NCBI GenBank assembly: GCA_963668695.2
Contig: CAXXLQ010000004.1
Location: 384,001 to 448,000, forward strand
Direction of reading: 5' to 3'
DNA length: 64,000 nucleotides
From: Vicinamibacteria bacterium
GTDB taxonomy: Bacteria > Acidobacteriota > Vicinamibacteria > Marinacidobacterales > Marinacidobacteraceae
The number at the start of each line of letters is the position of its first letter. Position 1 is the stretch's first letter. The notes under the pieces were generated by a model. The model searched no databases, was not told the origin of the DNA, and saw only the letters and a program-made list of their open reading frames with translations. The translations under genes and the position numbers were made by a program. Shown piece after piece: positions 5,294-61,489 of this stretch.

Positions 5294-6410
5294 GTGAGTG
5301 TCGCCGAACCCGTCATCGGGGCCTCCGACCACTACGCGAGGGCCGAGCTGGTCACCCTCGCGGTAGCAGACTCCGCTCTCGTCTTCCTCGATCGCCGGCG
5401 CGTCGAGCTGATCGACAAGGGCCTCCCGAAGGGTCTCCCGAGCGCGCCCTACCACCACGAGGCCTTGGAGCTGGACATCCGAGCGGCAACCGACCTCGTG
5501 AACCGGGTGAGGCGATCGGTAGCGGAACACGCGAGCGCGGCGATCTCGACGATGCTCGCGACCTTTCGGGCCCGGGTGCTGATCCTGCCCGCGAGTCCGT
5601 ATGACAGCTTGCCCGACTCGCTCGAGGAGGTCCTGAGGTCACGTCCTTTAACAGCCTGTGGTGGAACCCGCGTGAGCGCCGAGGCTGGCCAGTCTCCCGG
5701 TGGGGGCGAGGCCCAGTTCTCCCGGTGGGGGTCCGGCTGACAAGGCGCGTGAGGGAGGAGCCCCCACCGGGAGAACTGGCCCGAGTGTATTTCGACCGAA
5801 ACGCAACGATGAGCGGCGCGAAGCGACGCGGTGAACAGCCGGTGGTGGAACCCGCGTGAGCGCCGAGGCCGGCCAGTTCTCCCGGTGGGGGCGAGACGCC
5901 CGGCTGGCAAGGCGCGTGAGGAAGGAGCCCCCACCGGGAGAACTGGCCCGGGTGTATTTCGACCGAAACGCAACGATGAGCGGCGCGAAGCGACGCGGTC
6001 AGCCGGGATGGATCGCCGGCCGAGCCCCCACCGGGAGAACTGGGCCGCGTGGGTTTCATCACAGGCTGTTTGGCCGGGATGGATCGCCGGCCGAGCCCCC
6101 ACCGGGAGAACTGGGCCGCGTGGGTTTCACCACCGGCTGTTAACCCTGGCCGCCGACGGGATGCTGTACCGCGAGTCCCTAGCCCAGGCGGCGGCCGAAC
6201 GCGGCATTCGAACGCGGCATCGAGGTCCGGAGGTACCCGCGCCGGACGGACCCGGCGGTACTGGCGGCCGAGGCAATGGGGGTCGACGTATCCGAGGTCA
6301 TCTCGCTCATCGCCCGGTTCGGCCGAGAGGCGGGAACGCCGTGGCGCAAGGACCACAAGACGGCTGCTGCTGCTGCCCTCAGCGTCCTCGGGCGTCAGAT
6401 TCGTCGCTGA
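5294..6410 (+). pseudogene. Hypothetical protein gene disrupted by a nested MITE and a 13-bp duplication
   Basis: Reads ...EEVLRSRPL up to TTAA at 5648 and resumes LTLAADGMLYRESLAQAAAERGI after TTAA at 6140; a 13-bp tandem duplication near 6197-6221 shifts frame to EVRRYPRR...GTPWRKDHK...RR* (stop 6408-6410). Confidence 0.7.
5652..6139 (+). mobile_element. Nested double MITE (inner copy 5836-6068)
   Basis: Terminal inverted repeats CAGCCTGTGGTGGAACCC...GGGTTTCACCACCGGCTG flanked by TTAA on both sides; a second copy of the same element lies inside. Confidence 0.85.
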
Positions 6411-6499
6411 CCCCAAGAGTCAGCTCAAGTAAGCGAGCTCCTGCCTGGCGAAACGGCTGGATCAGGACCGGCCGAACCGAAGCGGGACCGCTACTGCCC

Positions 6500-6751
6500 C
6501 TACGGAATACGGTCCTCGGGCGCCGGAGGCTGCCCACCGTCGCGCCGCAGCAGTCGGCGCGCGACCTCGATCTCCGCTCCGGCCGCGCGGTCGGTGAAGA
6601 ACTCGGCGGTCTTCATGACGGACAGCTTCTCCGCCACCGCCGTCGCCACGAACTGGTTGATGCTCGTGCCGTCGGCCCGGCTCACCTCGGCAACGGCCGC
6701 CTTCAGCGACGCCGGCAGGCGCAGGGGATAGGTGCTGAGTTGCTTCTTCAT
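6500..6751 (-). CDS. RHH / HicB-like antitoxin
   Basis: 83 aa with YPLRLPASLK...GTSINQFVATAVAEK; ATGA overlap with the upstream PIN gene. Confidence 0.8.
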   Translation of the reverse strand: MKKQLSTYPLRLPASLKAAVAEVSRADGTSINQFVATAVAEKLSVMKTAEFFTDRAAGAEIEVARRLLRRDGGQPPAPEDRIP

Positions 6752-7170
6752 GACGGGAGTCTCCTCAAGGCGTCCTGCGGCGAGAGCAGGGCGGTGCCAA
6801 AGCGTCCGGGCGCCTGACCGAAGTCCTGACGGTTGAAAGTGACCAGCGCGTCGGCCCCGCCGTTGATGGCGGCGTCCAGCACCATCTCATCCGCAGGATC
6901 GTGTAGCTGCGGCCGCCAGAGGTACCCGGTTTCAACCGGCTCCGCAACGGCGCACAGCGCTTTCACGATGGCTTCCACCTCGACCTCGCTCAGCCCGGAC
7001 ACGATCCTCTGCGCCGGATCGCGGCACACGGCCTCGTATTCCAGCACGAGCGCTACGGACAGCAGCAGCACGAACGCTCCACTCAGGGCGCGATCCGTCA
7101 ACGCCGCCGACGCGCCTTTCGGACTGCGCAGACCGGCGACGATGATGTTGGTGTCAAGCACATATCGCAT
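6748..7170 (-). CDS. PIN-domain toxin
   Basis: VLDTNIIV, LEYE, DPADEMVLDAA and LVTFN acidic PIN motifs. Confidence 0.85.
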   Translation of the reverse strand: MRYVLDTNIIVAGLRSPKGASAALTDRALSGAFVLLLSVALVLEYEAVCRDPAQRIVSGLSEVEVEAIVKALCAVAEPVETGYLWRPQLHDPADEMVLDAAINGGADALVTFNRQDFGQAPGRFGTALLSPQDALRRLPS

Positions 7171-7180
7171 CATATATGAT
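7169..7180. promoter_or_regulatory. Putative TA operator palindrome ATCATATATGAT
   Basis: Perfect 12-bp AT-rich palindrome at the toxin start in GC-rich DNA. Confidence 0.5.
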
Positions 7181-7395
7181 GTCATATCTTATCAGATATC
7201 AGACGCCTGCGGCGCACCTGTGGGGTGTCGGCGGAGGGGGTGGACATTTCCGGGCCGGCGCGATCCTCCACCGGGTTTGGTGGGCTGCGGTTCTCCCAAA
7301 GACGTAAGAGTCGGTGTCTCTTGAAGGCGTTCCCGCTGTAGAGCGCCTTGAGGGATGCTCAGATGAACGCGTTTCGCACGCCTGCGGCGTGCGGT

Positions 7396-7413
7396 GCCGG
7401 TCTGAAGACCGGC
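7396..7413. repeat. REP-like palindrome GCCGGTCTGAAGACCGGC (empty allele)
   Basis: The same hairpin, or variants of it, recurs at 12396, 18603, 38774, 47030 and 49888. Confidence 0.75.
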
Positions 7414-7807
7414 GTTCCCTCTCCCATATTCCGGCTGGCGGAGTAGCGGTGGCGGAGCGCCAAGCAAGCGAAAAAACGAAATGGCGGCGAACCGGAGGTT
7501 CGCCGCCCGCATGACCGGGGGGAAAGTGTGAAAGGGGGGCACCCCCCTTTCACAAATTGACAGCGCAAAATCGAAACTCGCCGCAGTGCGCCGCAGGCGC
7601 GCAAGGGAGTTGCGATTCCCGAGCCAGGAGCGGTTGGGAGTCGGGTTCCCCGACCTCCAACCCTCCTGCTCCGGGGTCTCCGTGCGGCTCCCGCCGCACT
7701 TCGGAAGTCCGGCGCGAAGCGCCGGGCCGGCCCTGAGCGGGGTCTTGCCAAATCAGCCCCGTGGCACCGTGCACGAAACCGGACGGCGACCCCGCTCAGG
7801 GCCGGCG

Positions 7808-7882
7808 TGGTGCGCGGTGCAGGATTTGAACCTGCGACCACCTGCGTGTAAGGCAGGCGCTCTCCCGCTGAGCTAACCGCGC
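7808..7882 (-). tRNA. tRNA-Val(TAC)
   Basis: Reverse complement GCGCGGTTAGCTCAGCGGGAGAGCGCCTGCCTTACACGCAGGTGGTCGCAGGTTCAAATCCTGCACCGCGCACCA forms a cloverleaf with anticodon TAC and an encoded CCA. Confidence 0.95.
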
Positions 7883-8043
7883 ATTCCCGGCATTCTCGCA
7901 GCAACCGGGATGGCGGTCCATACGGTCCGGGTCCCGGTTCCGGGCGGATTCGGCGATGAAGAGTTTGGGGCGCGGCCGCGTAGTTCCCTAGTGAAAGCCC
8001 GAAGTCCGGAACCACCGGCCCGGGTGATCCGTTAGGAGAAGCC

Positions 8044-9138
8044 ATGAAGCGAACACTGTTTGTCGTGCTGGCGGCAGCCGCGGTCCTGGGCGGCGCGGGC
8101 CTCGTCGTCCCCCTGCTGCTGTCCGGGACCGAAACGAGCGAGGCGAGCGATATCACCGCGGGCGCCGAAGAGACCACCCGGACGCCGGTGAGCGTCGCCG
8201 AAGCCCGGCTCGGCCCGGTCACCCTCCATCTCGCGACCACCTCGGCGGTCGAGGCCGAACGCACCGCGCAGGTGTTCTCCGAGACCTCCGGAGTCCTCAC
8301 CGAGATCCGGGTCCGCGAGGGCGATTCGGTCGCCGCCGGTGACGTGCTGGCCCGGGTGGACGCCCGCGAGCGCCGGCTCGCGTTCCAGCAGGCCGATCTC
8401 CGGCTCTCGCGGGCCGATGCGGAACTCTCGAGGCAGAAGCGGGCGTTCGAACAGGACCTGGTCTCCGAGTGGGACTACGAGAAGGCGCGCTTCGATCGCG
8501 ACCTCGCCGCCTCGGAACTGGAAACCGCTCGGCTGGAGCTGGAACGGACCGAGATCCGCGCTCCCTTCGCGGGCAAGGTCACCGAGCTCCTGCTGGTCGA
8601 GGGCGGCCGGCTCGAGCCCGCGCAGCACCTGCTGACGCTGGCCGACTTCGACACTCTGGTGGCGCGGCTCTATGTCCCGGAGCGGGACGTGATCGGTCTG
8701 GCGCCGGGTCTGCCGGCGGTGGTCCGGCGGGAGTCGGACGCGAGCGGGAGCGGCCTGGTGGGACGGGTCCGGGAGGTCAGCCCGGTGGTGGACCGCAACA
8801 CCGGCACCGTGAAGGTGACCGTCGCGCTTCCGCGCCCGGCGGGGGCGGTCATCCGTCCCGGCTCCTTCGCCCGCGTGGTCATCGAGACCGGCCGGCGTGA
8901 GAACGCAGTGCTGGTTCCGAAGCGGGCGATCATCCAGAGCGAGGGCGGCGCCCACGTCTTCGTGGTCGAGGACGGCCGCGCGGTGCGGCGCGAAGTGACC
9001 GTAGGGATCGAGATGGAGAGCCCCGAGGGGGCGCTCATCGAACTGCTGGACGGGCTCGAGGCGGGAGCGCGCGTGGTGGTTGCCGGCCACGGCGCGCTGA
9101 CCCCGGGCGACTTGGTCCAAATCCTGAACGGCAACTGA
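8044..9138 (+). CDS. RND efflux periplasmic adaptor (membrane fusion protein)
   Basis: N-terminal anchor, VREGDSV..G and IRAPFAG lipoyl halves, SPVVD..TGT motif; RBS AGGAG. Confidence 0.9.
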   Translation: MKRTLFVVLAAAAVLGGAGLVVPLLLSGTETSEASDITAGAEETTRTPVSVAEARLGPVTLHLATTSAVEAERTAQVFSETSGVLTEIRVREGDSVAAGDVLARVDARERRLAFQQADLRLSRADAELSRQKRAFEQDLVSEWDYEKARFDRDLAASELETARLELERTEIRAPFAGKVTELLLVEGGRLEPAQHLLTLADFDTLVARLYVPERDVIGLAPGLPAVVRRESDASGSGLVGRVREVSPVVDRNTGTVKVTVALPRPAGAVIRPGSFARVVIETGRRENAVLVPKRAIIQSEGGAHVFVVEDGRAVRREVTVGIEMESPEGALIELLDGLEAGARVVVAGHGALTPGDLVQILNGN

Positions 9139-9183
9139 TTCACCGGACGGATTCCGGACTGCCAACCCCGTGAAATCAGCCCC

Positions 9184-12100
9184 GTGAAATCCCTGATCAC
9201 TTCCTGCATCCGGCGGCCGGTGACCGTCGCCATGTTCACCGTGGCCACCTGCGTGTTCGGGTTCGTGGCCCTCGGCCGGCTGCCGGTCAATCTGCTGCCG
9301 GAGATCTCCTATCCCACCCTGACGGTCGAGACCCGAATGGCGGGCGCGGCGCCCATCGAGGTCGAAACGCTGGTCACGCGCCCCATCGAGGAGGCGGCCT
9401 CGGTCGTTCCCGGGCTCCGCCGGGTTACTTCCCGTTCCCGCGCCGGGGTGTCCGAGGTCACGCTGGAGTTCGTCTGGGACACGAACATGGACTTCGCCGG
9501 GCTCGACGTGCGGGAAAAGCTCGATGGCGTCCTCCTTCCGGAAGACGCCGAGCGGCCCCGGCTCCTGCGCTTCGACCCCGCGTCGGACGCCATCTTCCGG
9601 ATCGGCGTCTCCGGGGGACTGCCGCTCTCCGGTATCCGGCAATGGACGGAAGAGGACCTCAAGAAGGACCTCGACGCGGTGGACGGGGTCGCCGCGGTCC
9701 GGATCGAGGGCGGCCTGGTCCGGGAGATCCAGGTGGATGTGGACGAGGGCCGGCTTGGCGCCTACGACATCACCGTCGCGGAGGTCCGGACGGCGCTGGC
9801 CGACAACAACGTGAACCTGGCCAGCGGCAGCGTGTACGAGGACGAGGCCCGTTATCTGGTCCGGACGCTGAACGAGCTGGACACGCTGGACCGCATTGAC
9901 GCCGTGATCGTGAAGGACGCCAGCGGGCGCCTCGTGAGGCTCGCCGACGTGGCGGAGGTCCGTTCCGGGTTCAAGGATCAGGAAGTGATCCTGCGGCAGG
10001 GCGGCGCCGAGGGCGTCGAGGTCAGGATCTTCAAGGAGGGAGACGCGAACACGGTGCGGGTGGCCGAAGGCATCCGGGCCCAGCTCGAAGCGGTGGAGGA
10101 CTCGGTTCCCGCCGGGGTGTCGCTGGCCGTCCTCTTCGACCAGTCGCAGTTCATCGAAGGCGCCATCTCGGAGGTGGTGCGCAACGCCTGGGAGGGGGGC
10201 CTGCTCGCCATCCTGGTGATCGCGCTGTTTCTCCGCGAACGGCGGGCGACGGCGGTGGTCGCGATGGCCATTCCCGTCTCGGTGATCGCCACCTTCTTCG
10301 TGATGCAGCAGATGGGGCTTTCGCTGAACATCATGTCGCTCGGCGGGCTCGCGCTCGGGGTGGGCATGCTGCTCGACGACTCCATCGTGGTGCTGGAGGC
10401 GATCCACCGCCGGCGCCACGGGGGCGAGCCCGGCCCCCACCGGGAGAACTGGCGGGATGCGGCGATCGCCGGCACGGTGGAGGTCGCGGGCCCGGTGATC
10501 GCCTCGACCCTGACCACCGTCGCGGTGTTCCTGCCCATCGTCTTCGTGGAAGGAGTCGCCGGACAGCTCTTCCACGACCAGGCGCTCACCGTCTCCATCT
10601 CCATCCTCGCCTCGCTGGGCTTCTCGCTGGCGCTCATCCCGGTCCTCGCCAGCCGGGGCGGAGCCGCTCCCGGTTCCACCGGGGAGGCCAAGGCGACGAT
10701 CACCGTCCGGGCGCTGGGCGCGGTCCGCACGGGTTTTCGCAAGGTCGGGCGCGTAATCATCCTTCCGCTGCGGCCGCTGCTGTGGGCCTTTAGAGCGGCC
10801 GAGACCGCGGTCACGCGCGCCTATCCGCCGGTGCTGCGCGCCGCCCTCCGCCACCCGGTGACCGTCTTCGCGCTGGCGACCGGGCTCTTCGCCGGATCGC
10901 TCGCCGTCGGAAGAACCGCCATCGGCGTCGAACTCATTCCGGCGCTCTCCCAGGGCGAGTTCCACTTCGACGTCCACCTCCCGGAGGGATCCGCAGTGAC
11001 CGCGACCGATGCGGTGGTGGACGGTGTGGGCACCGCCGCGCTCGACCTCCCGGGGGTGCTCCGGGTGACCACCGAAGCGGGCACCGCCGCCGGAGGCGGC
11101 TTCGCGGGCGGCTCGGGACGCGCCGAGCACCAGGGCCGGGTCCAGGTCGTCATGGCGGACCGGGGTGACAAGGAGGCCGAGGCGGCCGCGATCGAGAGGG
11201 TCCGGGCCGGTCTCGCGGAGCGGCCGGGGATCCGCTACGAGTTCGGCCGGCCGTCCTACTTCAGCGTCCGCCAGCCCGTCGAGGTCGAGGTCTTTTCCGA
11301 GGACCGCTCGCTGCTGGTGCCGAGCGCCCGCCGGGTGCAGGCGGCCGTCGCCGGGGTCCCCGGGCTCGCCGACGTGCGTTCGACCGCCGAGGCGGGGAGT
11401 CCGGAGATCCGGGTCCGATTCGCCGCCGATCGCCTGGCGAGCCTCGGACTCACGGTGGACCAGGCGTCCGAAGGGCTTCGCTCCAAGCTCCGCGGCGAGG
11501 TCGCCACCCGGCTCGACGAGGGCGACCGGCGGATCGACATCGTGGTGCGGGGCAGCGAGAACCTCCGCTCGCACACCGCCGCGGTGCCCGAACTCATCGT
11601 GTACTCCGAGGGAGCGCGCCCGGTGCCGCTCCGCGCGCTCGGGAACGCCGAGCTCAGCGAGGGACCGGCCGAACTCCGCCGGGTCGGCCAGCGCCCCGCG
11701 GTGGTGGTCTCGGGCAACCTCGACGGGGTGGACCTGGCCAGCGCCACCGAGGCCATCGAGACCGCCGTCGCCGGGCTGGGGCTCGCCCCGGGGGTCTCCA
11801 CCCGCTTCGGGGGACAGAGCGAGGAGATGGAGCGTTCCTTCGCGAGCCTGGCGCTCGCCATCGGCCTCGCCATCTTTCTCGTCTACTTCGTGATGGCGAG
11901 CCAGTTCGAGTCGCTGCTGCATCCGTTCCTGATCCTCTTCACGATCCCGCTCGGGGCGATCGGGGTGGTCTGGGCGCTCCTGCTCTCGGGATCCACGATC
12001 AGCGTGATCGTGCTCATCGGGGTGGTCATGCTGGCCGGCATCGTGGTCAAAAACGCCATCGTGCTGGTGGACTGCATCAACCGGCTGCGGCGGGACGGGA

Positions 12101-12339
12101 TGGCGAAGGCGGAGGCCATCGTCGCCGCCGGGGAGATCCGGCTGCGGCCGATCCTGATGACCACCCTCACGACGATCCTGGCGCTGGCCCCGATGGCGCT
12201 CGGACTCGGCGAAGGAGCCGAGATCCGGGGCCCGATGGCGATCACGGTCATCGGCGGACTGGCGGTCTCGACCCTGCTGACGCTGGTGGTGATTCCGACG
12301 GCGTACGCGGTGTTCGACCGGAAGAGGTTTGCGGAGTGA
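9184..12339 (+). CDS. RND efflux permease (AcrB/AcrD/AcrF family)
   Basis: 1051 aa; RRPV, GMLLDDSIVVLE, KNAIVLVD and RLRPILMTT motifs. Confidence 0.95.
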   Translation: MKSLITSCIRRPVTVAMFTVATCVFGFVALGRLPVNLLPEISYPTLTVETRMAGAAPIEVETLVTRPIEEAASVVPGLRRVTSRSRAGVSEVTLEFVWDTNMDFAGLDVREKLDGVLLPEDAERPRLLRFDPASDAIFRIGVSGGLPLSGIRQWTEEDLKKDLDAVDGVAAVRIEGGLVREIQVDVDEGRLGAYDITVAEVRTALADNNVNLASGSVYEDEARYLVRTLNELDTLDRIDAVIVKDASGRLVRLADVAEVRSGFKDQEVILRQGGAEGVEVRIFKEGDANTVRVAEGIRAQLEAVEDSVPAGVSLAVLFDQSQFIEGAISEVVRNAWEGGLLAILVIALFLRERRATAVVAMAIPVSVIATFFVMQQMGLSLNIMSLGGLALGVGMLLDDSIVVLEAIHRRRHGGEPGPHRENWRDAAIAGTVEVAGPVIASTLTTVAVFLPIVFVEGVAGQLFHDQALTVSISILASLGFSLALIPVLASRGGAAPGSTGEAKATITVRALGAVRTGFRKVGRVIILPLRPLLWAFRAAETAVTRAYPPVLRAALRHPVTVFALATGLFAGSLAVGRTAIGVELIPALSQGEFHFDVHLPEGSAVTATDAVVDGVGTAALDLPGVLRVTTEAGTAAGGGFAGGSGRAEHQGRVQVVMADRGDKEAEAAAIERVRAGLAERPGIRYEFGRPSYFSVRQPVEVEVFSEDRSLLVPSARRVQAAVAGVPGLADVRSTAEAGSPEIRVRFAADRLASLGLTVDQASEGLRSKLRGEVATRLDEGDRRIDIVVRGSENLRSHTAAVPELIVYSEGARPVPLRALGNAELSEGPAELRRVGQRPAVVVSGNLDGVDLASATEAIETAVAGLGLAPGVSTRFGGQSEEMERSFASLALAIGLAIFLVYFVMASQFESLLHPFLILFTIPLGAIGVVWALLLSGSTISVIVLIGVVMLAGIVVKNAIVLVDCINRLRRDGMAKAEAIVAAGEIRLRPILMTTLTTILALAPMALGLGEGAEIRGPMAITVIGGLAVSTLLTLVVIPTAYAVFDRKRFAE
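10433..10452 (+). repeat. 20-nt element GCCCCCACCGGGAGAACTGG inside the RND coding sequence
   Basis: Exact match to the copies in MITEs and REPs; read as GPHRENW in the loop after TM4. Confidence 0.9.
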
Positions 12340-12429
12340 GTCGCGTCTTGCAGCGATGGAGAAGCGGGAGTTTCGCTGCCCTGCCGGGCAGCGATGCCGG
12401 TCGGAGACCGGCGCTTCTTTCTTGACGGA

Positions 12430-16331: not shown

Positions 16332-16338
16332 ATATCAT

Positions 16339-18518: not shown

Positions 18519-18727
18519 GTGCCGACCAGAGGTCGGCGGTCCAAGCCGTCCCCGCGCCTCTTCTCGGTTAGCGATGGGAGTTTCGCCCGCTGCGCGAGCG
18601 ATGCCGGTCTGAAGACCGGCGCTCCTTGCCGTCCCCGCGCTTCTGCTCGGTTAGCGATGGGAGTTCCGCCCGCTGCGCGGGCGATGCCGGCCAGTTCTCC
18701 CGGTGGGGGCCTGAAGACCGGCGCTCC
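18519..18727. repeat. REP-like cluster: two tandem ~83-bp hairpin units, the second carrying the 20-nt insert (18691-18710)
   Basis: GCCGTCCCCGCGC..GGTTAGCGATGGGAGTT..GCCGGTCTGAAGACCGGCGCTCC occurs twice; copy 2 has GCCGG[20-mer]CTGAAG. Confidence 0.85.
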
Positions 18728-26680: not shown

Positions 26681-26683
26681 TAA

Positions 26684-26917
26684 CAGCCTGTGGTGGAACC
26701 CGGGTGAGCGCCGAGAGCGGCCAGTTCTCCCGGTGGGGGCGAGGCGCCCGGCTGACAAGGCGCGTGAGGGAGGAGCCCCCACCGGGAGAACTGGCCCGGG
26801 TGTATTTCGACCGAAACGCAACGCAGAACGCAGCGAAGCGGAGTGGTTCAGCCGGGATGGATCGCCGCTCGAGCCCCCACCGGGAGAACTGGGCCGCCTG
26901 GGTTTCACCACAGGCTG
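26684..26917 (+). mobile_element. MITE carrying three 20-nt inserts
   Basis: TIRs CAGCCTGTGGTGGAACCC / GGGTTTCACCACAGGCTG; flanks CTAA and TTAC. Confidence 0.88.
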
Positions 26918-26921
26918 TTAC

Positions 26922-29523: not shown

Positions 29524-29560
29524 GCCGGTCTGAAGGCCCCCACCGGGAGGACTGGCCGGC
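29524..29560. repeat. REP-like palindrome with a 20-nt insert (29536-29555) in the right arm
   Basis: GCCGGTCTGAAG[GCCCCCACCGGGAGGACTGG]CCGGC. Confidence 0.85.
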
Positions 29561-33619: not shown

Positions 33620-34720
33620 GTGTCCGGGTTTCCGATCCCCGCGCCGTTCCCGCGGTTGGCCGGGCTTGCCGCGAGCGGCCGGCTGCCGCAAAGCCTCCTG
33701 CTGAGCGGGCCTTCCGGCGCCCCCACGGTGGAGGCGGCGATCGCGCTCTCGGCCATCGTGAACAGTTCCGACCGGGACCCGGAGTCCGAGGCCACCCGCG
33801 TGCTCCACCAACGCATCGTGGGGACGGACTCGGCGTTCCGCACGGGCGGAGAGGCCGGCCGCGGGACCGGTCCGGCGGGCGGGCCCTACCCGGATGTTCG
33901 GATCCTGAGGCCCGAGAGCGGCAAGCCGATCCGGGTGGACGAGGTCCGCCAGGCGATCGCCGCGGTGCGAACCCATCCCTTCGAAGGGCGGCGGCGCGTC
34001 CTGGTGATCGAGGCCGCGGACACCATGAACCCCCCGGCCGCCAACGCGCTCCTCAAGACGCTCGAAGAGCCGCATCCGTGGCTCGGGCTGATTCTTTGCG
34101 CCACCCGGGAGGCGGCGCTCCTCCCCACGATCGTCTCCCGCTGCCAGCGCTGGCGCTTCGCGGCGCCCACCACGCCGGCGGTCGCCGCGCGGCTGCAGGA
34201 GGCGCACGACTACCCGCCGGAAGAAGCGGTGGTCGCCGCGGCCGCCGCCCGCGGCGACCTCGCGCGGGCGCTCGCGCTGCCGCGCGACCGGCTGTTGCCG
34301 CTCGCCGAGGAGGCCGAACGGATGGCCGTGATCGTCGGCCGGGGCATCGCGCCGCCGGCGCGGACGGCGCTGACCGAACGACTCATGAAGGCCTCTCCCC
34401 GCAGCCGGAAGGCGGGCCACATCGATGAACTGCAGACCGTTCTGGTGCTGCTCCGCGCCACCCTTCGCGATCTGGCGGCTCTTTGTTCCGAGAGCGCGGC
34501 GGTCTCCGGCGATGCCGGACACCTGCGGAAGATCGCCGAACTCGCGCCCGGGAGCGCTTTCGCGGAGGCGCTGCTCCTCGTCGAGGAGACCGACCGCAAC
34601 ATGTACCGCTCCTACGGCAACAAGCGGATGCAGCTCGACGCACTCCTGCTCGCCTTCAACGAGATCGCCCGGCCGTTGGTGGTTGCGCGGCTGCGCGCCC
34701 AGCGGGCTTCGCGGGGCTAG
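33620..34720 (+). CDS. holB: DNA polymerase III delta' subunit
   Basis: Follows tmk; AANALLKTLEEP and LLPTIVSRCQ. Confidence 0.85.
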   Translation: MSGFPIPAPFPRLAGLAASGRLPQSLLLSGPSGAPTVEAAIALSAIVNSSDRDPESEATRVLHQRIVGTDSAFRTGGEAGRGTGPAGGPYPDVRILRPESGKPIRVDEVRQAIAAVRTHPFEGRRRVLVIEAADTMNPPAANALLKTLEEPHPWLGLILCATREAALLPTIVSRCQRWRFAAPTTPAVAARLQEAHDYPPEEAVVAAAAARGDLARALALPRDRLLPLAEEAERMAVIVGRGIAPPARTALTERLMKASPRSRKAGHIDELQTVLVLLRATLRDLAALCSESAAVSGDAGHLRKIAELAPGSAFAEALLLVEETDRNMYRSYGNKRMQLDALLLAFNEIARPLVVARLRAQRASRG

Positions 34721-34935
34721 CAGCCTGTGGTGAAACCCAGGCGGCCCAGTTCTCCCGGTGGGGGCTCGCCCGGCGATCCATCCCGGCTGAACCACTCCGC
34801 TTCGCTCCGTTCTGCGTTGCGTTTCGGTCGAAATACACCAGGTATTCCTCCCTCACGCGCCTTGTCAGCCGGGCCCCCACCGGGAGAACTGGGCCTCACC
34901 GGGCTCGGCGCTCACCCGGGTTCCACCACAGGCTG
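34721..34935 (-). mobile_element. MITE with two 20-nt inserts, at the holB stop codon
   Basis: Same TIRs as the other copies; flanks CTAG (contains the holB TAG) and CTAA. Confidence 0.88.
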
Positions 34936-35115
34936 CTAAGGCACCGCCGACAACCCGGACGGCGCGCGACAGCGGAGCGCCAGCCTCTGAGCTTGCCCCG
35001 GTTGATCGGACCAGTAGGAATGGCCGAAACGCCGGTGACATGATCCGCAACCCCAAGAAACTGCGGTCGTAATCCCCGCAGACACAAGCGCCTCACCCGC
35101 CAGGAGACCCGCCCC

Positions 35116-38767: not shown

Positions 38768-38818
38768 GGGAACGCCGGTCTTCAGACCGGCATCGCCCGC
38801 GCAGCGGGCGAAACTCCC
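38768..38818. repeat. REP-like double hairpin (empty allele)
   Basis: GGGAACGCCGGTCTTCAGACCGGCATCGCCCGCGCAGCGGGCGAAACTCCC. Confidence 0.8.
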
Positions 38819-46925: not shown

Positions 46926-46968
46926 GTGCCGGCCCCCACCGGGAGAACTGGCCGGAGGTCGGCGTTCC
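46926..46968. repeat. Second REP-like palindrome (GTGCCGACC..GGTCGGC type) with a 20-nt insert (46932-46951)
   Basis: GTGCCG[20-mer]CCGGAGGTCGGC versus the empty GTGCCGACCAGAGGTCGGC at 18519. Confidence 0.8.
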
Positions 46969-49754: not shown

Positions 49755-49919
49755 CTCGGGTTCGTTGGTTGCGCTCTCGTCCGGAGGGTACTTGGTCGGG
49801 GATCTCTGGCCGGAACGGTGGAGGCCGACTGTCACCCGCGCTTCTGCGCCCATAGCCATCCGCGGTTGCGCCCGCTGCGCGGGCGGTGCCGGTGTGAACA
49901 CCGGCGGTCCCTGACTTAA

Positions 49920-50098
49920 CAGCCTGTGGTGAAACCCAGGCGGCGTTCGAGCGGCGATGCATCCCGCCTGAACCGCGCCGCTTTGCGGCGCTCTGCGTTG
50001 CGTTTCGGTCGAAATACACTCGGTATTCCTCCCTCACGCGCCTTGTCAGCCGGGCGCCTCCCCGCTCTCGGCGCTCACCCGGGTTCCACCACAGGCTG
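49920..50098 (-). mobile_element. MITE, 179-bp form with no 20-nt inserts, at the smpB stop codon
   Basis: TIRs CAGCCTGTGGTG.AACCC; TTAA on both sides, the right one containing the smpB TAA. Confidence 0.9.
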
Positions 50099-50611: not shown

Positions 50612-50687
50612 GAAAACCAGTCTAGCGGTCAGGTGCCGAAAACAGCACGGGTCTACCCCTCACGTTTACCATGCGGGGACCCCGAAG

Positions 50688-51920: not shown

Positions 51921-51998
51921 GATGCCAGTTCTGAAATGCCAGTTCTGAAATGCCGGTTCTGAAATGCCAGTTCTGAAATGCCAGTTCTGAAAACGCCA
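51915..51998. repeat. 14-bp VNTR TTCTGAAATGCCAG, five units plus a partial unit
   Basis: Starts at the gspF stop codon; each full unit contains TGA-N-ATG. Confidence 0.9.
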
Positions 51999-53549: not shown

Positions 53550-53589
53550 CAACGGCGTCCGCAGGACCGACGCTCGGTCAGCTCTGGAT

Positions 53590-54183: not shown

Positions 54184-54265
54184 GAATGGTTGCTTCTCCA
54201 GTTTCTTCGGGGTACGCGGAAGGTGCGCCGCCGGGTTTAGCGGAAGCGTGGGCGAGTCGGGGAGG

Positions 54266-55750
54266 CTACGTCTTCCGGCGGCTCCCACTCCACAAGCGGC
54301 GCCGAGTCACCGTGCGCCAGTCGGCGATGTAGTCGTCGACCGGACGCCGGCGCGCGAGGTCGGAGTCCGCGGCGCGGAGGCAGCGTCGCATAGTGCGCGC
54401 GGCGTAGACGCCACCGAGCACATTGGCGAGCGAGACCGCGGCGAAGAGGCCCACGGCGCCAAAGAGCGCGCCGAGCGAGGCGAGCGGAGCCGTGAACGCG
54501 AACGTTTTGACCATCAGGATGCGAAGGGACTCTCCCGGTATCTGCACTCCGTTGAAGATGGAAGAGGTCACCGCGAGGAGCCCCGCCGGCGCGTAAGAGA
54601 TTGCGACTATCCGGAAGTACAGGGTCACGTAGTGCTGGACTGTTTCGTCGCCGCTGAACATCCGGGCCACCGGCCCGGCGCCGAGGACGAGCGCCACGAA
54701 CAACAGGCCGCCCCAGTAGAACGACGCCTTCCCCGCGAAGACGATCGCTTCGTCCACCCGGGCGCGGTTTCTGGCGCCGAAGTTCTGGGCGACAAACGGA
54801 ACGAGCGCGACGCTCACGCTCGATATCCCCACGAGTCCCAGAAGTTCGATCCGCGTCGCGATCCCCAGCGCCGCAACGACCTCGGCCCCGGACTTCGCGG
54901 CCAGGAAAGTGACGAATACGGCGGTTAGCGGGGTGAGCACCTGGGTAGCGACCGTGGGCGCGGAGAGCCGCAGGATCGGGAGCAGGACGGCGCTTCGGGG
55001 GGACCCGTCCTCCATCCGCTGCCGCCGGAGCAGACCCGCCCGTACGAGCAGCACTACCGTCGAGACGGCCACGAACCCCCATGAGATGACGGTGGCGAGC
55101 GCGGCGCCCTGGATCTCGAGGCGCGGGAACGGACCGGCGCCGAAGATCAACAGGTAGTCGAGGACGAGGTTCAGCACCCCCGCCGCACCCATCAGGAGCT
55201 CGGGAGCCCTTAACCAACCCGTCGCCCGGACCGCGGCGTTTCCGACGAGCGCGACGGCGAGGAGCGGCATGCCGAGGTAGAGGACGCCCATGTACTCGGC
55301 GATGAGCGGGAGGATGGCGGCGTCCGCCCCGAGCAGGCCGAAAACCGGCCCGATCGTGAGCAGGCCGATCAGCGAGAGGAGCGCCGCGAGCCCGGCGGCG
55401 AGGACCACGGACGTCCGCGCGAAGCGCGCCGCGCGGGACGCGTCCCCCTCGCCGAGCGCGCGGGCGACGAGCGACGACGCGCCGACCGACAGCCCGATGA
55501 ACAGCCCGACCAGCAGGAAGAAGAGCGCCGAGGAGAAGCTGAGGGCGGCGAGCTCAGCCGTGCCGAGCCTGCCGACGAACCAGGTGTCCACCACCTGGAA
55601 CAGGAAGGTCGAGAGCATGCCCAGACTGATGGGCGCCGACATCGCGAACAGGGCGCGATTCACCGGGGCGACCGCGAGACGGCGGCCGGGATCGGTGGCG
55701 CTTTGCTCGGGACCCGGGGTTGTCAACGGCCGGAACAACGGGGTCTCCAA
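54266..55750 (-). CDS. MATE family efflux transporter
   Basis: VDTWFVGRLG, NLVLDYLLIFG and AQNFGA; about 12 TM helices. Confidence 0.9.
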   Translation of the reverse strand: METPLFRPLTTPGPEQSATDPGRRLAVAPVNRALFAMSAPISLGMLSTFLFQVVDTWFVGRLGTAELAALSFSSALFFLLVGLFIGLSVGASSLVARALGEGDASRAARFARTSVVLAAGLAALLSLIGLLTIGPVFGLLGADAAILPLIAEYMGVLYLGMPLLAVALVGNAAVRATGWLRAPELLMGAAGVLNLVLDYLLIFGAGPFPRLEIQGAALATVISWGFVAVSTVVLLVRAGLLRRQRMEDGSPRSAVLLPILRLSAPTVATQVLTPLTAVFVTFLAAKSGAEVVAALGIATRIELLGLVGISSVSVALVPFVAQNFGARNRARVDEAIVFAGKASFYWGGLLFVALVLGAGPVARMFSGDETVQHYVTLYFRIVAISYAPAGLLAVTSSIFNGVQIPGESLRILMVKTFAFTAPLASLGALFGAVGLFAAVSLANVLGGVYAARTMRRCLRAADSDLARRRPVDDYIADWRTVTRRRLWSGSRRKT

Positions 55751-55843
55751 CCGGAAGGTTCCGCACCGAAGCCCGGAGCGCGTTCCCGGCCGATGCGAGT
55801 CGAGGCCGGTCGGAGGGCGTGCTGCAGCGCCGCGCGGCGGTCG

Positions 55844-58741: not shown

Positions 58742-58771
58742 GGGGGGTGGAGAGTACAGGGAGCGGGGGCT

Positions 58772-58824
58772 TGGAGCGCCCGTCTTCAGACCGCCGTCGC
58801 CTCCCGCAGGGGGGCGAAACTCCC
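58772..58824. repeat. Degenerate REP-like double hairpin
   Basis: GGAGCGCCCGTCTTCAGACCGCCGTCGCCTCCCGCAGGGGGCGAAACTCCC. Confidence 0.7.
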
Positions 58825-58911
58825 CCTGTTACTCCCCTTTGCGGCTAACCCGTCAAGTGGCGCGAGTTTCACTACCGGCTGTTATCTCCCGGCGCCGGCG
58901 ACCCCTACGAC

Positions 58912-59931
58912 TTATCTCGAATGCGAGTTCGTGTAATGGTCGGCGAGAAGGTCCCTGCCGAAGTCTCCCTCCAGATCGCGCCAGACCGTGTGGATGTGGT
59001 TCGCGTCATTCTGCGTGTTGTCGTATTCGATGAGGAACGTCGGGCCGTGGACCCGGTAGTAGTGCGGGTCGCCGGGCTCAGCGGTGCCGGCCCACGCGAA
59101 GTGAATGTCTTGGAGACCGGCCGCCTTGATCTTGTCGAACTCGTCCTTTGCGAGGTCGAGCCGCAGCCGGCCGGTATAGACCTGCAGGAGCTCGACGAGC
59201 TTGTCGGCCTGCTCGTCCGTCATGTCGCGGGTCGCAACCCCGAGCGGTTCCCCGGCCTCGGCGACCCGGTCGTGGCCCGTCAGGATGTCGGGCGGCGCCT
59301 CGGCGTCGAAGATGACCTTTTCACGCGCCCCACCATCGAAGAGCGCGAGCAGCTCCCTCGCTACCGTCTGCTCCGCCGCGAGCACCTCGAGACCCTCGTG
59401 CTTGCCTTCCCCGGCGATCGCCGGATTGCTGCCCATGAACGCCGGTGACGTCGCGATGACCTCGCCGTCGTTGAGCGTGAGGTTGAGCGACAGATGATGC
59501 CCCTCGACGCGCCAGCCCCAGGCGCCCGAGCTCGATGGCTCATCGAACACCGTGAAGTAGTAGCGGTCGGAATCACGAATGTCGCGGCCTTCGCGCTCGT
59601 AGAGAATCTGTTCGAGATACATGATCCCGAGCGCCTTGCTGATCCCCTCGTGGCTCAAAGCCGTGCCGAGCAGGCGGTCGGCGAGCCGGCGCTGGGGCGG
59701 CGTGAACTCCCCGTACGGGAGTCCCTCCCGATCCCGCGGTATGAAGTGCCAATTGAGCCGCTCGTCGTCAGCGAACGCGAACGTCGCCTGGTCCCGCTGG
59801 TCGGGATCGAGCGAGACCAGAAAATGCCGCGCCCGGTCGATCATCTCCTCGGCAACATCCTGAGATACGGCCGTCCAGCCAATCGACGCCGCGAGTACGA
59901 GGCATGCGAACAACGCAATCCTGATCTTCAT
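58912..59931 (-). CDS. DUF3500 domain protein
   Basis: WHFIP, WGWRVEGHHLSLN, YYRVHGPTFLIEYDN and NHIHTVWRD..DFG. Confidence 0.9.
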   Translation of the reverse strand: MKIRIALFACLVLAASIGWTAVSQDVAEEMIDRARHFLVSLDPDQRDQATFAFADDERLNWHFIPRDREGLPYGEFTPPQRRLADRLLGTALSHEGISKALGIMYLEQILYEREGRDIRDSDRYYFTVFDEPSSSGAWGWRVEGHHLSLNLTLNDGEVIATSPAFMGSNPAIAGEGKHEGLEVLAAEQTVARELLALFDGGAREKVIFDAEAPPDILTGHDRVAEAGEPLGVATRDMTDEQADKLVELLQVYTGRLRLDLAKDEFDKIKAAGLQDIHFAWAGTAEPGDPHYYRVHGPTFLIEYDNTQNDANHIHTVWRDLEGDFGRDLLADHYTNSHSR

Positions 59932-60002
59932 GTTCGGTCTCCTTCCTTTGACCGATTCTACGCTCGCGTACCGCCGACCGCGAACAAGCGCCGGGACGGC
60001 CA

Positions 60003-60071
60003 GGAGCGCTGGCCAGTTCTCCCGGTGGGGGCCTTCAGACCGGCATCGCGGCCGGAGGCCGCGAAACTCCC
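60003..60071. repeat. REP-like double hairpin with a 20-nt insert (60013-60032)
   Basis: GGAGCGCTGG[CCAGTTCTCCCGGTGGGGGC]CTTCAGACCGGCATCGCGGCCGGAGGCCGCGAAACTCCC. Confidence 0.85.
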
Positions 60072-60141
60072 ATCGTCGCTCCCCGCGTGGCACCGCGGTG
60101 AATAGGAGCGCCGATCTTCAGGCTCCCACCAACAGAAGCGG

Positions 60142-61104
60142 CTAACCCGTCAGTTCCCGCAGCGTCAGCATCGCTATCGCGAGGTCCTGGACGCCCATGC
60201 CGGTCAGATCGACGACCGAAATGCCGTCCCGCGCCATCCGCGGGTCCGGGCTGGCGAGCGACAGCATTTCGCCAAAGGAGCAGTCGCTGTCTTCCGCGAC
60301 CGCGCCGGCTCTCACCGCGGCGCCGAATTCACTGTGATGCAGACACTCCCGATGGTCGTCGGTGACGATGGTGTGGGCCCTGCCCAGGATGCGCGGATCC
60401 AGCTCGGTCTTCCCCGGGGTGTCGGCGCCGACGGCGACGATGTGGAGCGTTTCGGGAACGTCTTCCAGATGAACGACCGGTTTCGTCGCGGGGGTGGTGG
60501 TGACGAGAATGGCGCTGGAATGGCAGACATCGCGGACCGTATCCATCGCGGTGGCCGCCAGTCCTCCGGCCTTCAGCTTTTCCGAGAGGGCGGCCGCCTT
60601 GGCGGCGGAACGTCCCCAGATGGACACCGACCCAAGCCCCAGATGGGAAGCGATCATGGTGGCCTGTATCTCCGCCTGGGTCCCGGTGCCGATCACGCCG
60701 AGAGTCGCGTCCTTCGACACCGGTTTCAGACCGGCAGCCAGGGCCCCGGCAGCCGCGGTGCGGACGTTGGTAAGCCAGCACTCGTCGTGGAGAATGGCCT
60801 CCGGAAGGCCGGTGTCGGTGGAGATCAGGACGATCATGCCGCCGGCGCCGGGCAGGCCGCGCGCCGCATTCCGGTACGACCCCGATGCGATCTTGACCGC
60901 AGCGTACGGACGGCCGCTCCAGATGGCGGACTTGACGTGACATTCGCCATGCTGTTCCTGCCGGTCGTCGCGGAACACGATCTGGACGGGCTCGGGGCAG
61001 TGCACCTGCCCCCTCGCATGGGCGATGAATCCGGCCTTTACGGCCTCGATGGCGGCTTTCGCGGTGATGGCCGACTGAATGTCGGCAAGGGGAACGATGC
61101 GCAT
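60142..61104 (-). CDS. Ornithine cyclodeaminase / mu-crystallin family protein
   Basis: LTNVRTAAAG, GVIGTGTQA, AVGADTPGKTEL and DLTGMGVQD. Confidence 0.9.
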   Translation of the reverse strand: MRIVPLADIQSAITAKAAIEAVKAGFIAHARGQVHCPEPVQIVFRDDRQEQHGECHVKSAIWSGRPYAAVKIASGSYRNAARGLPGAGGMIVLISTDTGLPEAILHDECWLTNVRTAAAGALAAGLKPVSKDATLGVIGTGTQAEIQATMIASHLGLGSVSIWGRSAAKAAALSEKLKAGGLAATAMDTVRDVCHSSAILVTTTPATKPVVHLEDVPETLHIVAVGADTPGKTELDPRILGRAHTIVTDDHRECLHHSEFGAAVRAGAVAEDSDCSFGEMLSLASPDPRMARDGISVVDLTGMGVQDLAIAMLTLRELTG

Positions 61105-61172
61105 CCGGGGTGTCCTTTCCGTGGGGGAATGCAGGATGTCTGAGATCCCCGCTCAGGGAAACCAGGTCTCAA

Positions 61173-61489
61173 CAGCCTATCGACAAAGTCACGCGGCATT
61201 CCCGAGCCAGAAGGGATGGTGGTCGGGTGACCCCGCCCCCCGCCCCTTCCGCTCCGGGGTCTCCGCGGTGCTGACGCCCCGCTCCGGGGTCTCCGCGGTG
61301 CTGGCGCCCCGCTCCGGAAGCGACCGGCGATGCATCCCGGCTGAACCGCCCCCCCACCGGGAGAACTGGCGCTTCGCGTCGCTCATCGTTGCGCTTCGGT
61401 CGAAATACACCAGGTATTCCTCCCTCGCGCGCCTTGTCAGCCGGGCGCCTCACCGGTCTCGGTACTCACGTCACTTTGTCCACAGGCTG
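61173..61489 (-). mobile_element. Divergent MITE variant with an internal 30-bp tandem repeat and one 20-nt insert
   Basis: Ends CAGCCTATCGACAAAGTCACG / CGTCACTTTGTCCACAGGCTG; core 61325-61455 matches the other MITEs. Confidence 0.7.

Follow-up and report, generated by a model that had tools for sequence, protein, structure and literature searches.

The window analysed here is a stretch of 64,000 nt from a genome (G000) of the class Vicinamibacteria (Acidobacteriota), and it contains many copies of a 20-nt sequence, GCCCCCACCGGGAGAACTGG, which has no ends, hairpin or coding capacity of its own. On balance, we regard this 20-mer as a very small mobile module specific to one bacterial family, probably inserted by a sequence-specific trans-acting activity.

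A search allowing up to three mismatches returned 17 matches in the window, on both strands and each with 0 or 1 mismatch, against a chance expectation of 0.03 in dinucleotide-preserving shuffles, 0 of 100 of which reached 17. An eighteenth copy, at 5689, is 19 nt long and was missed by the search because one T is deleted. An earlier reading based on the sequence only had listed about 18 copies in both orientations; the 17 matches and the deletion copy account for these, although the last one starts at 61350 and not at 61351. That reading had also called the 20-nt unit near-invariant, which holds for positions 1–19, while the first base is variable (G 88%, A 7%, C 5%), so that the conserved unit is 19 nt. 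The copies and the repeats associated with them are as follows.

5649–6143, unstranded: composite MITE cluster with seven copies inside
5689–5707, minus strand: degenerate 19-nt copy with one T missing, MITE site C (sequence read)
5713–5732, minus strand: copy with first base A, MITE site B (1 mismatch, flanks read)
5760–5779, plus strand: copy in MITE site F, between GAGGGAGGA and CCCGAGTG (motif search, sequence read)
5873–5892, minus strand: copy in MITE site C (motif search, haplotype comparison)
5927–5946, plus strand: copy in MITE site F (motif search, sequence read)
6024–6043, plus strand: copy in MITE site A, in the first 71-nt module of a tandem pair of end modules
6095–6114, plus strand: copy in MITE site A, second 71-nt module
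7396–7413 (plus strand), 18603–18620 (plus strand) and 38774–38791 (minus strand): empty REP1 hairpins
10433–10452, plus strand: in-frame copy in an RND/AcrB-like transporter ORF (9184–12339, plus strand)
18691–18710, minus strand: copy in REP1 hairpin, with the empty sister hairpin at 18603–18620
26721–26740, minus strand: copy in site C of MITE 26681–26920
26775–26794, plus strand: copy in site F of MITE 26681–26920
26873–26892, plus strand: copy in site A of MITE 26681–26920
29536–29555, plus strand: G14 variant copy (GGACTGG) in REP1 hairpin
34746–34765, minus strand: copy in site A of the reversed MITE 34718–34939
34873–34892, plus strand: copy in site B of the reversed MITE 34718–34939
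46932–46951, plus strand: copy in REP2-type hairpin, between GCCG and CCRGAGGTCGGC in place of A
49917–50098, unstranded: empty reference MITE of ~180 nt with ends TAACAGCCTGTGGTG and CACCACAGGCTGTTA
60013–60032, minus strand: copy in REP1 hairpin, with flank CCAG in place of CCGG
61350–61369, plus strand: copy with first base C, MITE site D, between CTGAACCGC and CGCTTCGCG

In public runs, the composite cluster reaches a word depth of ~450–1,000 times that of the flanking unique sequence. Site B next to the 5873 copy (~5893–5900) is empty here and filled in haplotype contig C1. The MITE at 49920–50098, described earlier as empty, indeed holds no 20-mer anywhere in 49917–50098, and the REP hairpin GCCGGTCTGAAGACCGGC is, as had been reported, empty at 7396, 18603 and 38774 and filled at 18691, 29536 and 60013.

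Over the whole G000 assembly, 748 and 749 matches with at most one mismatch were found on the two strands and none for the reversed control. Redundant haplotype contigs and overlapping contig ends were taken out before copies were counted. A genome-wide count, as proposed from the window, gave 896 exact copies, ~1,394 with at most one mismatch (1,394 in the de-duplicated chromosome of 3.775 Mb) and 1,497 with at most two, strand-symmetric and evenly distributed along the chromosome; only ~1–5 of 1,536 copies are coding according to a crude GC3 test. Genomes of the family are also positive: the exact 18-mer occurs in 21 of the 27 other genomes of the same Vicinamibacteria family and in none of 273 genomes spread over 21 other families, and copy number among relatives ranges from 1 to ~1,400.

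Empty sites with the same flanks are found across the G000 genome. Between GCCGGCCGA and GCCGCGTGG, where the empty form carries AC, 116 sites are filled and 38 empty genome-wide, and between GGTCTGAAG and CCGGCGCTC, where it carries A, 16 are filled and 26 empty. A new copy is an exact swap of 1–3 target bases, usually 2, for N-CCCCCACCGGGAGAACTGG, with a net gain of +18 or +19 and no target duplication. Because the gain is usually +18, simple MITEs (n = 309) form an 18-nt length ladder (179, 197, 215, 234, 251 and 270 nt for 0–5 copies) and tandem arrays have a period of 18 nt. Haplotype pairs (~97.6–99.5% identical) show at least eight presence/absence or copy-number differences, the same MITE and REP copies having the 20-mer in one haplotype and lacking it in the other. 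Comparison of empty and filled alleles, in same-flank pairs, haplotype pairs and orthologues, bears out the earlier observations that both states coexist and that 1–3 nt are replaced without target-site duplication or terminal inverted repeats.

At the RND gene, a de novo insertion is shown directly by comparison of orthologous loci. G000 and its closest relative, G001, read GAGCCCG, 20-mer, CGGGAT, whereas G008 reads GAGCCCG-CG-CGGGAT, so that the junction at this empty orthologous site, which the sequence-only reading had proposed to align, is a replacement of CG by the 20-mer. The motif is absent from the locus in 26 of the 27 other genomes, G000 and G001 being the only carriers among the 28 family genomes, and at this site, the only one for which a clean outgroup is available, the filled form is derived. 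The in-frame copy exchanges one residue for GPHRENW. Another insertion in coding sequence, found in genome G012, changes EP to GPPPGELV (net +18); GPHRENW and PPPGEL were both among the protein insertions that had been suggested as search targets.

The insertion contexts in G000 form 49–58 flank clusters. Insertions are mainly found at a few fixed positions of the ~180-nt hairpin MITE, in several REP hairpins and in the element itself, and coding DNA is rarely used. Targets are GC-rich; A/T bases are frequent among those replaced, and the sequence that follows is usually CC, GCC or CG. The right flank is nearly always C or G, then C, also among cluster representatives, while left flanks are variable; this target rule is a tendency only. 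The 20-mer does not fold alone (MFE –1.4 and –1.9 kcal/mol, z 0.45 and –0.10), and the empty MITE at 49917–50098 folds as one long hairpin (–64.4 kcal/mol, z –9.3, with none of 200 shuffles reaching that stability). In the predicted fold of the MITE, six of eight sites involve unpaired bases (p about 0.1). The earlier proposal that insertion occurs at hairpin-forming DNA agrees with the main hosts but not with a test of local palindrome apices as targets, which was negative (19% vs 13–15%).

The five MITE sites assort almost freely, with 38 of 48 possible state combinations seen among 227 classifiable MITEs, and for sites C and B, which lie 5 nt apart, every combination is present on several MITE backgrounds. 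Gene conversion between paralogous MITEs could account for part of this free assortment. In G018 and G019, other MITE positions and other REP families are used than in G000. In G020, at least 43 MITE copies are accompanied by a single 20-mer, located in a diverged MITE, which indicates that a genome with targets does not always have the inserting activity.

Variants of the sequence are retained when copies appear in different host types, which shows that new copies are templated by existing ones: the G14 variant is found at site B (78), site C (40), REP1 (10) and others, and a double end variant, GG..GC, in REP1 (15) and REP2 (11). Most 18-nt tandems are at site B, at which the replaced dinucleotide is GC. 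Nested arrays were found at 12 places among the G018 loci examined and at none in G000; in G018, the hosts are fixed for a diverged form, GCCCCTACCGGGAGAACCGG, whereas copies that nested recently have the canonical sequence. The 20-mers in MITE sites F and A show 0.2–0.4% non-consensus bases compared with 3–6% in their flanks. REP1-borne copies are as diverged as their own flanks (13 with 0 mismatches, 18 with 1, 17 with 2, 8 with 3, plus more diverged ones), showing that old copies decay like neutral DNA.

The sequence-only reading had considered a reverse transcriptase or retron-like product, cargo of a HUH/RAYT-type enzyme, or an oligonucleotide captured by end joining, with a master copy beside an RT, HUH/RAYT, Ku/LigD or recombinase gene. 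None of these was borne out. The RVT_1 domain (PF00078) had no match in G000 and is absent from 24 of 28 family genomes, two of the four positive ones lacking the motif; a retron or RT product was accordingly rejected. Y1_Tnp (RAYT/IS200; PF01797) had no match in the copy-rich genomes G000, G004, G018 and G019, and its presence in 15 of 28 family genomes is unrelated to copy number. In domain searches of G000, the serine recombinase (Resolvase) was absent and TnpB reached only a sub-threshold score of 21.7 bits. Ku is encoded in 27 of the 28 genomes, including those without the motif, and capture at random breaks fits poorly with recurrent positions and identical junctions. No enzyme among these co-varies with the 20-mer, and four low-copy genomes share no unique 'master' locus and have none beside a candidate gene. 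Judged by its domain content, the putative activity in G000 is not a reverse transcriptase, Y1 HUH/RAYT transposase, serine recombinase or TnpB. An IS200/IS605-type element (PATE) was rejected, given the absence of subterminal hairpins and of Y1_Tnp, left flanks that vary where such an element would follow a fixed tetranucleotide, and the sub-threshold TnpB, as was the scar of a larger element, since no 20-mer halves flank a longer element in G000; truncated prefix/suffix pairs there were all mismatch variants.

The same positions being used with identical junctions, and the canonical sequence being active across genera while the diverged variant is a fossil, point to a sequence-specific trans-acting activity encoded in the family, which most likely catalyses the insertion. 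Our best guess is that it would swap a target dinucleotide for the 20-mer. Where GC is replaced, the element's own GC start restores the target, and repeated insertion builds the 18-nt tandem arrays. Insertions within older copies likewise build the nested arrays of G018, and hitch-hiking on MITEs multiplies the copy number further.

It is conceivable, although we rather doubt it, that no dedicated enzyme takes part and that the 20-mer is spread by replication or repair errors through template switching at 1–4 nt of microhomology. A nascent strand would stall in a GC-rich hairpin, fray at weak A/T, copy an existing 20-mer and return, and the boundaries would seem sharp only because the copied donor flank must match the target. 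Replacement of 1–3 bases without duplication, copy-templated variants and strongly hairpin-forming hosts are consistent with such a process, as is the right flank, which return by microhomology would give. Slightly fuzzy junctions, namely an extra C at site F and a change of CCGG to CCAG beside REP1 copies, also favor it, because a co-copied donor flank would produce them, and CCAG matches the REP2 donor flank. A comparable process is outlined for SPDIR in a 2023 preprint, in which ectopic single strands anneal at microhomologies and integrate during replication. However, one unit with the same ends is found in 49–58 contexts and three genera, the same positions are taken repeatedly with identical junctions, the abundant diverged variant of G018 is not the one newly inserted, and G020, rich in hairpin MITEs, has only one 20-mer. 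In addition, the best match of the RND target to 515 donor flank pairs is 6 contiguous bases, which 25.5% of 400 random targets also reach.

It is improbable that the 20-mer is now immobile, a few ancient insertions having been amplified passively with MITEs and REPs and diversified by gene conversion, slippage and deletion. Deletion and slippage are observed (loss of 19 nt between GGCC repeats, a partial deletion of 15 nt, tandem copy-number changes), simple MITEs contain at least 583 of 1,463 copies and composite MITE or REP repeats most of the others, and the sole copy of G020 sits in a diverged MITE. Yet the two unique coding insertions have no flank-matched paralogous donor, sites 5 nt apart assort freely, insertion positions differ between genera, G018 contains nested self-insertions, and MITE-borne copies are ~10-fold less variable than their flanks.

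We consider it very unlikely that the abundance and invariance of the 20-mer reflect a functional role for which each copy is selected, for instance in DNA uptake or in the binding of proteins or of the nucleoid, instead of mobility. Its family-specific, strand-symmetric and even distribution and its identical sequence in several genera would suit such a role, but copies in REP1 hairpins decay at the same rate as the sequence around them, copy number varies from 1 to ~1,400 among relatives, and a 19-nt motif is beyond the reach of point mutation, so that insertion would be needed anyway. A DNA uptake sequence (DUS/USS type) was rejected on this decay and on the handful, at most, of coding copies. 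Although its copies are near-invariant, a library adapter, primer or assembly artefact, for which a screen had been proposed, is practically inconceivable, because contigs of three independent studies cross the RND insertion without a gap, 16 public runs from several studies each contain at least half of the words sampled from the window, the positive family genomes include short-read and long-read assemblies alike, the 273 other genomes of the class have no match, and the 20-mer lies in frame within two genes.

MITEs and Rickettsia palindromic elements are non-autonomous, nest mutually and can sit in frame in genes; they measure at least 100 nt and have inverted ends and target duplications or a palindromic structure. 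The 20-mer has neither that length nor these features, and membership among MITEs was rejected because its halves are not inverted repeats and its junctions are replacements, not duplications. Cyanobacterial small dispersed repeats (SDRs) are about 21–27 nt long. By analogy, the closest precedent of the 20-mer is these repeats (SDR1-8, e.g., SDR5) of the Nostocaceae, so that, although its 18-mer was not found in the literature searched, the earlier statement that it is not a described element holds for the sequence and not for the kind. In papers that cite Elhai et al. (2008, Genome Res 18:1484), SDR families are described as restricted to Nostocaceae, and SDR5, 21 nt long and regarded as mobile, is inserted precisely between bases 3 and 4 of HIP1, a short GC-rich palindrome; no enzyme is known and its function was still called unknown in 2026. 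Like SDRs so described, the 20-mer is dispersed far above chance (20 nt, 1,394 copies vs 0 for the reversed control), precisely inserted relative to empty homologous sequence, lineage-restricted and mobile-looking. It differs in its host, which belongs to another phylum (Acidobacteriota, class Vicinamibacteria), in a sequence that we call unrelated on the published description of SDRs, in replacing 1–3 bases where an SDR cleanly splits its target, and in being unfolded, with many targets rather than one palindrome and ~1,400 copies; tandems by reinsertion and nested self-insertion are seen for the 20-mer.

REP/REPIN sequences, according to the account of Bertels and Rainey (2011, PMC3116915), are mobilised by RAYT (Y1 HUH) transposases and are likewise short, extragenic, lineage-specific, associated with hairpin repeats and present in hundreds to thousands of copies, often as inverted pairs. 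The 20-mer is not a hairpin-forming palindrome, has REP hairpins as its targets without being such a hairpin itself, and abounds in G000 and three other copy-rich genomes that lack a Y1_Tnp gene; membership was rejected. The dRS3 repeat of Neisseria intergenic mosaic elements (Bentley et al., 2007, PMC1797815) is also a 20-bp repeat with hundreds of copies embedded in mosaic intergenic arrays. According to that account, its sequence is ATTCCCN8GGGAAT, in which terminal inverted repeats of 6 bp enclose a variable centre, and a specific recombinase is proposed to act on it; the account does not present it as inserting into genes or into other repeats. Membership in dRS3/NIME was rejected because the 20-mer lacks the 6-bp terminal inverted repeats that flank RS units. 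SPDIR microindels, as presented in the 2023 preprint, resemble it in that a short ectopic patch replaces a few bases with no duplication and no element ends, but they are rare, varied in size and sequence and flanked by extended microhomology to the donor, whereas the 20-mer is one recurring fixed unit; this constancy, and microhomology within the random range at RND (one event), led us to reject membership.

Copied ~1,400 times into the genome, the 20-mer ranks among the smallest units of mobile DNA so far observed. Tentatively, it may represent a previously undescribed class of mobile DNA in bacteria, a 19–20-nt unit that lacks ends and structure and is installed by a putative sequence-specific enzyme or nucleic-acid-guided complex that excises a dinucleotide. 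If this is true, the family would possess a natural 'short-insert writer', and the same activity might account for the cyanobacterial SDRs, unexplained since 2008.

The 20-mer GCCCCCACCGGGAGAACTGG was matched 17 times in the window by pattern search, each time with 0 or 1 mismatch, while shuffled sequences led us to expect 0.03 matches. The sequence-only reading had counted about 18 copies; the remaining one, at 5689, is a copy minus one T. In the whole assembly, 748 + 749 matches were obtained at ≤1 mismatch, and none with a reversed control. This assembly is redundant: C1 (99.5% identical) and C3 (97.6-99.7%) are haplotype copies of parts of C4, the contig holding the window, and the ends of C4 overlap by ~140 kb at ~99% identity (9354-148038 vs 3775642-3913787). 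The C1 duplicate covers the window up to ~37200. The haplotype duplicates (97.6-99.7% identity), which account for the 9% 'contamination' figure of the assembly, raise raw 20-mer counts by ~7%. After de-duplication, 896 exact copies, 1,394 at ≤1 mismatch and 1,497 at ≤2 mismatches were counted in 3.775 Mb, corresponding to one per 2.6 kb and to ~28 kb of the 3.8-Mb genome. A position-by-position tally showed that positions 1-19 of the unit are 87-100% conserved (mostly 98-100%) and that the first base is variable (G 88%, A 7%, C 5%); almost all copies are followed by C or G and then C.

The sequence-only reading had asked whether the 20-mer could be an adapter or an assembly artefact, which is excluded by its presence in independent runs and contigs and by its restriction to one family. 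At least half of the sampled words of window 5000-12000 were found in 16 public runs from several studies, and contigs from three studies cross the copy in a transporter gene without gaps. The exact 18-nt core was present in 21 of the 27 other family genomes and in five of the seven genera, at counts from 1 to ~630, and in none of 273 genomes from 21 other families of the class Vicinamibacteria. By their titles, the records with the motif belong to the Acidobacteriota, class Vicinamibacteria, 'Candidatus Marinacidobacterium' and relatives. The sole non-Acidobacteriota record among the matches listed (91 stretches) is a 6-kb contig binned as Gammaproteobacteria (L035), in which the 20-mer (742-761) lies inside a REP hairpin typical of the family (GGGAACGCCGG..TTCACACCGGC); this contig is probably mis-binned. 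A literature search returned no match to the 20-mer sequence. In the public runs, the word depth of the MITE cluster was ~450-1,000x that of flanking unique sequence; in one RNA library it was ~100x that of flanking genes, which is below the DNA ratio and therefore uninformative on transcription.

By a crude GC3 test, at least ~98% of the copies are non-coding (21 coding candidates among 1,536, most of them false). Hosts were assigned by rule for the 1,565 core matches on C4.

Host contexts of the 20-mer on C4 (rule-based classification)
MITE site A: 332 copies
MITE site F: 311 copies
MITE site B: 224 copies
MITE site C: 203 copies
MITE site D: 60 copies
REP1 hairpins: 109 copies
REP2 hairpins: 40 copies
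18-nt tandems, second or later units: 146 copies
Other contexts (including MITE positions K, L and G, other REP families and unique sequence): 140 copies

Sites A, F, B, C and D are five positions in one MITE family. Greedy clustering of the flanks gave 49 clusters for all copies and 58 for the copies outside the main MITE sites. The MITE is ~180 nt long and has the ends TAACAGCCTGTGGTG; its predicted fold is a single long hairpin (-64.4 kcal/mol, z -9.3). Both allelic states described from the sequence alone were recovered: the MITE at 49917-50098 carries no 20-mer, and of the REP hairpins three are empty and three filled. When intergenic copies of G000, the genome of the window, were compared with the relatives G001, G008 and G004, the intergenic repeats proved not to be conserved between species.

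Several further features of these repeats were observed. The 71-nt module at the right end of the MITE, which comprises a site-A 20-mer and the terminal repeat, is tandemly repeated 2-5 times at window 5980-6143, C1 82285-82517 and C4 304345-304577, with a number of modules that varies from haplotype to haplotype. Next to a tRNA gene at window 7811-7882 (-) lies a REP cluster (7340-7807) in which word depth is raised. At C4 1786003-1788216 and 3128216-3130428, the loop of a REP1 hairpin is interrupted by an IS of 2.2 kb with a transposase-like ORF of 640 aa (GGTCTGAA-IS-TTCAGACCGGCG), and a single IS110-family element (C4 ~482100-483880) has inserted into the 3' arm of a REP2 hairpin, where its position differs from that of the 20-mer; several unrelated elements therefore target REP hairpins. 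In a genome of another genus, G020, copies of this MITE family number at least 43 (contig C1 of that genome; L092 8285-8500 and 42 other places), and there is only one 20-mer, in a MITE copy only ~81-84% identical to the others; this 20-mer may have survived as an old relic or have arrived by horizontal transfer.

The bases replaced by the 20-mer were read by comparing empty with filled sites that share their flanks.

Bases replaced at individual sites
Site A: AC
Site B: GC
Site C: one base
Site D: GC
Site F: ATA, replaced by 21 nt
Site K: AA
Site L: AT
REP1: A
REP2: A
RND transporter gene: CG
Site in G018: TT
Site in G019: TC
Old copies in G018: TA or CA

In the usual event, GC plus the 18-nt core is written over two bases, and this rule of dinucleotide replacement explains three architectures alike. 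First, simple MITEs form a length ladder, with medians of 179, 197, 215, 234, 251 and 270 nt at 0, 1, 2, 3, 4 and 5 copies (n = 78, 62, 57, 56, 41 and 15, respectively). Second, ~129 of the 146 18-nt tandems are at site B, where the replaced GC equals the first two bases of the unit, so that the target is regenerated; the two units of a tandem are in many cases not the same variant, an argument against simple slippage. Third, nested arrays were found at 12 places among the G018 loci examined and at none in G000; one intact copy has GCCCC repeats to its left and CCGGGAGAACTGG repeats to its right, whose numbers mostly match, some loci having one extra GCCCC on the left. A/T is common among the overwritten bases, with CC, GCC or CG coming next, a preference that is only partly defined. 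A rule based on unpaired bases was rejected, since the 6 of 8 MITE sites that touch such bases in the predicted fold do not amount to a significant excess. Likewise, a palindrome-apex rule was rejected, as a flank stem of ≥4 bp occurs in 19% of the 58 context clusters vs 13% of random and 14.5% of shifted positions. No replication-strand bias was observed, + and - copies being balanced in each 250-kb bin.

The 20-mer occurs at its sites in many combinations. Among 227 classifiable simple MITEs, 38 of the 48 possible state combinations at sites C, B, F, D and A were seen. For sites C and B, which are 5 nt apart, all four combinations of empty and filled were present in 590 MITE modules, on several sequence backgrounds of which empty versions exist too. 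Distant MITE sites could be shuffled by gene conversion, but it is unlikely to have separated sites 5 nt apart so often. In other genera, the same unit is found at other positions of the same MITE family and in other REP families.

Two insertions into coding sequence were analyzed. The copy at 10433 lies in frame within an RND/AcrB-like ORF, an orthologue of which is present in all 28 family genomes. Both haplotypes of G000 and its closest relative, G001, carry the motif at this site, whereas all 26 remaining loci lack it. The relative G008 reads GGCGAGCCCG-CG-CGGGATGCGG and G000 reads GGCGAGCCCG-[20-mer]-CGGGATGCGG, so that CG was replaced with a net gain of 18 nt. Insertion of the 20-mer, with its polarity, is thereby shown at this site. 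A second insertion, specific to G012, changes LAALG-EP-RPV (as in G000) to LAALG-GPPPGELV-RPV, again with a net gain of 18 nt. No paralogous donor with matching flanks was found for either coding site, which rules out gene conversion as their explanation. The alignment of a copy at a unique site in G010 (L187) was not clean.

The haplotype duplicates in G000 serve as strain-level comparisons. Across three near-identical comparisons, at least eight 20-mer differences were found. Site B at C4 389896, in the MITE cluster of the window, is filled in one haplotype and empty in the other; two adjacent site-F copies (C4 3524467 and 3524615) differ as ATA vs 21 nt with identical flanks; and tandem copy number differs at C4 353538. 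A comparison over 130 kb with 40 copies revealed a site B that is empty (GC) vs filled, a tandem of 2 vs 1, a 15-nt internal deletion in one copy, and a REP1 copy vs GAAGGCCGGC, where 19 nt have been lost between GGCC repeats and G remains in place of the usual A. Gains and decay of the 20-mer therefore both occur, and its turnover is recent. Polymorphism between haplotypes is also seen for short tandem duplications (13-25 nt) that have no relation to the 20-mer (window 6208-6235; C4 407454, 349062 and 324268), and such duplications vary between public runs as well, two of which have 13 nt inserted at window 6208.

Sequence variants of the unit recur across hosts. The G14 variant was found at site B (78), site C (40), REP1 (10), REP2 (2) and elsewhere (11); existing copies serve as the template for new ones. 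In the GG..GC variant (REP1 15, REP2 11; e.g. C4 615075 and 918900), the second and last bases carry complementary changes (GGGC...GCCC vs GGCC...GGCC), a single covariation which hints that the unit ends may pair with each other or with the flanks during the reaction. At MITE sites F and A, non-consensus bases make up 0.2-0.4% of the 20-mer vs 3-6% of the flanks, and in REP1 the 20-mer is as diverged as its flanks. Individual copies are therefore not under selection, and they are uniform because they are young. In the REP and MITE hosts of G018, the fixed form is the diverged GCCCCTACCGGGAGAACCGG, and the copies newly nested in it are canonical, suggesting that the canonical sequence alone is active.

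That the 20-mer is an independently inserting micro-element is well supported, and we regard it as highly probable. For the mechanism, we lean slightly towards a putative sequence-specific activity, because junctions are identical at recurrent sites, one unit is conserved across genera and the diverged variant appears to be inactive. The main rival, microhomology-guided template switching or SPDIR-like patching from existing copies, accounts for the base replacement, the C/G-rich right flank and the occasionally co-copied flank bases; however, it leaves the constancy of the unit unexplained and donor microhomology at the RND site is not above chance, and we consider it rather improbable.

A search for the gene behind the putative sequence-specific activity bore on several candidates named in the sequence-only reading. 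Neither Y1_Tnp nor RVT_1 was found in G000, which speaks against its HUH/RAYT and RT/retron-like proposals; Resolvase was not found there either, and TnpB gave a sub-threshold match only. Ku, also proposed, is present in G000, yet it occurs in 27 of the 28 family genomes and is therefore non-discriminating. Nor did a master copy emerge: the low-copy genomes G010, G012, G007 and G016 share no such locus (30 loci; 37 of the 41 listed copies); no unique site is common to the inspected copies, whose contexts are REP, MITE, palindromic or coding. The IS110-family element was rejected as the mover, given its different REP2 position and no visible link to the 20-mer. A phage or plasmid vector was rejected as the source, given 0 exact matches among IMG/VR contigs. 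Other origins were likewise discarded: G000 holds no split halves of the 20-mer that would mark it as the scar of some larger element; a tRNA 3'-end origin is contradicted by 58 predicted tRNA/tmRNA genes, which all end in other sequence; and the only Rfam match above threshold in the window is one tRNA.

Ends recognised by a transposase are what normally defines mobile DNA, and the smallest accepted parasitic elements are ~100 nt long. To our knowledge, the dinucleotide-replacement rule is matched by no described transposition chemistry. The closest precedent is provided by the cyanobacterial SDRs, of which SDR5 is described as a 21-nt module inserted between bases 3 and 4 of HIP1, with a function still reported as unknown. 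The search for the mover of the 20-mer is tractable through comparative genomics and biochemistry, given many natural pairs of filled and empty alleles, true-breeding variants and relatives with 0, 1, tens or >1,000 copies. Should an enzyme be found, it could account for the cyanobacterial SDRs as well and might help to install short sequences. In these bacteria, a 20-nt unit without ends acts as a prolific insert that remodels MITEs and REPs and occasionally lengthens proteins by six residues.
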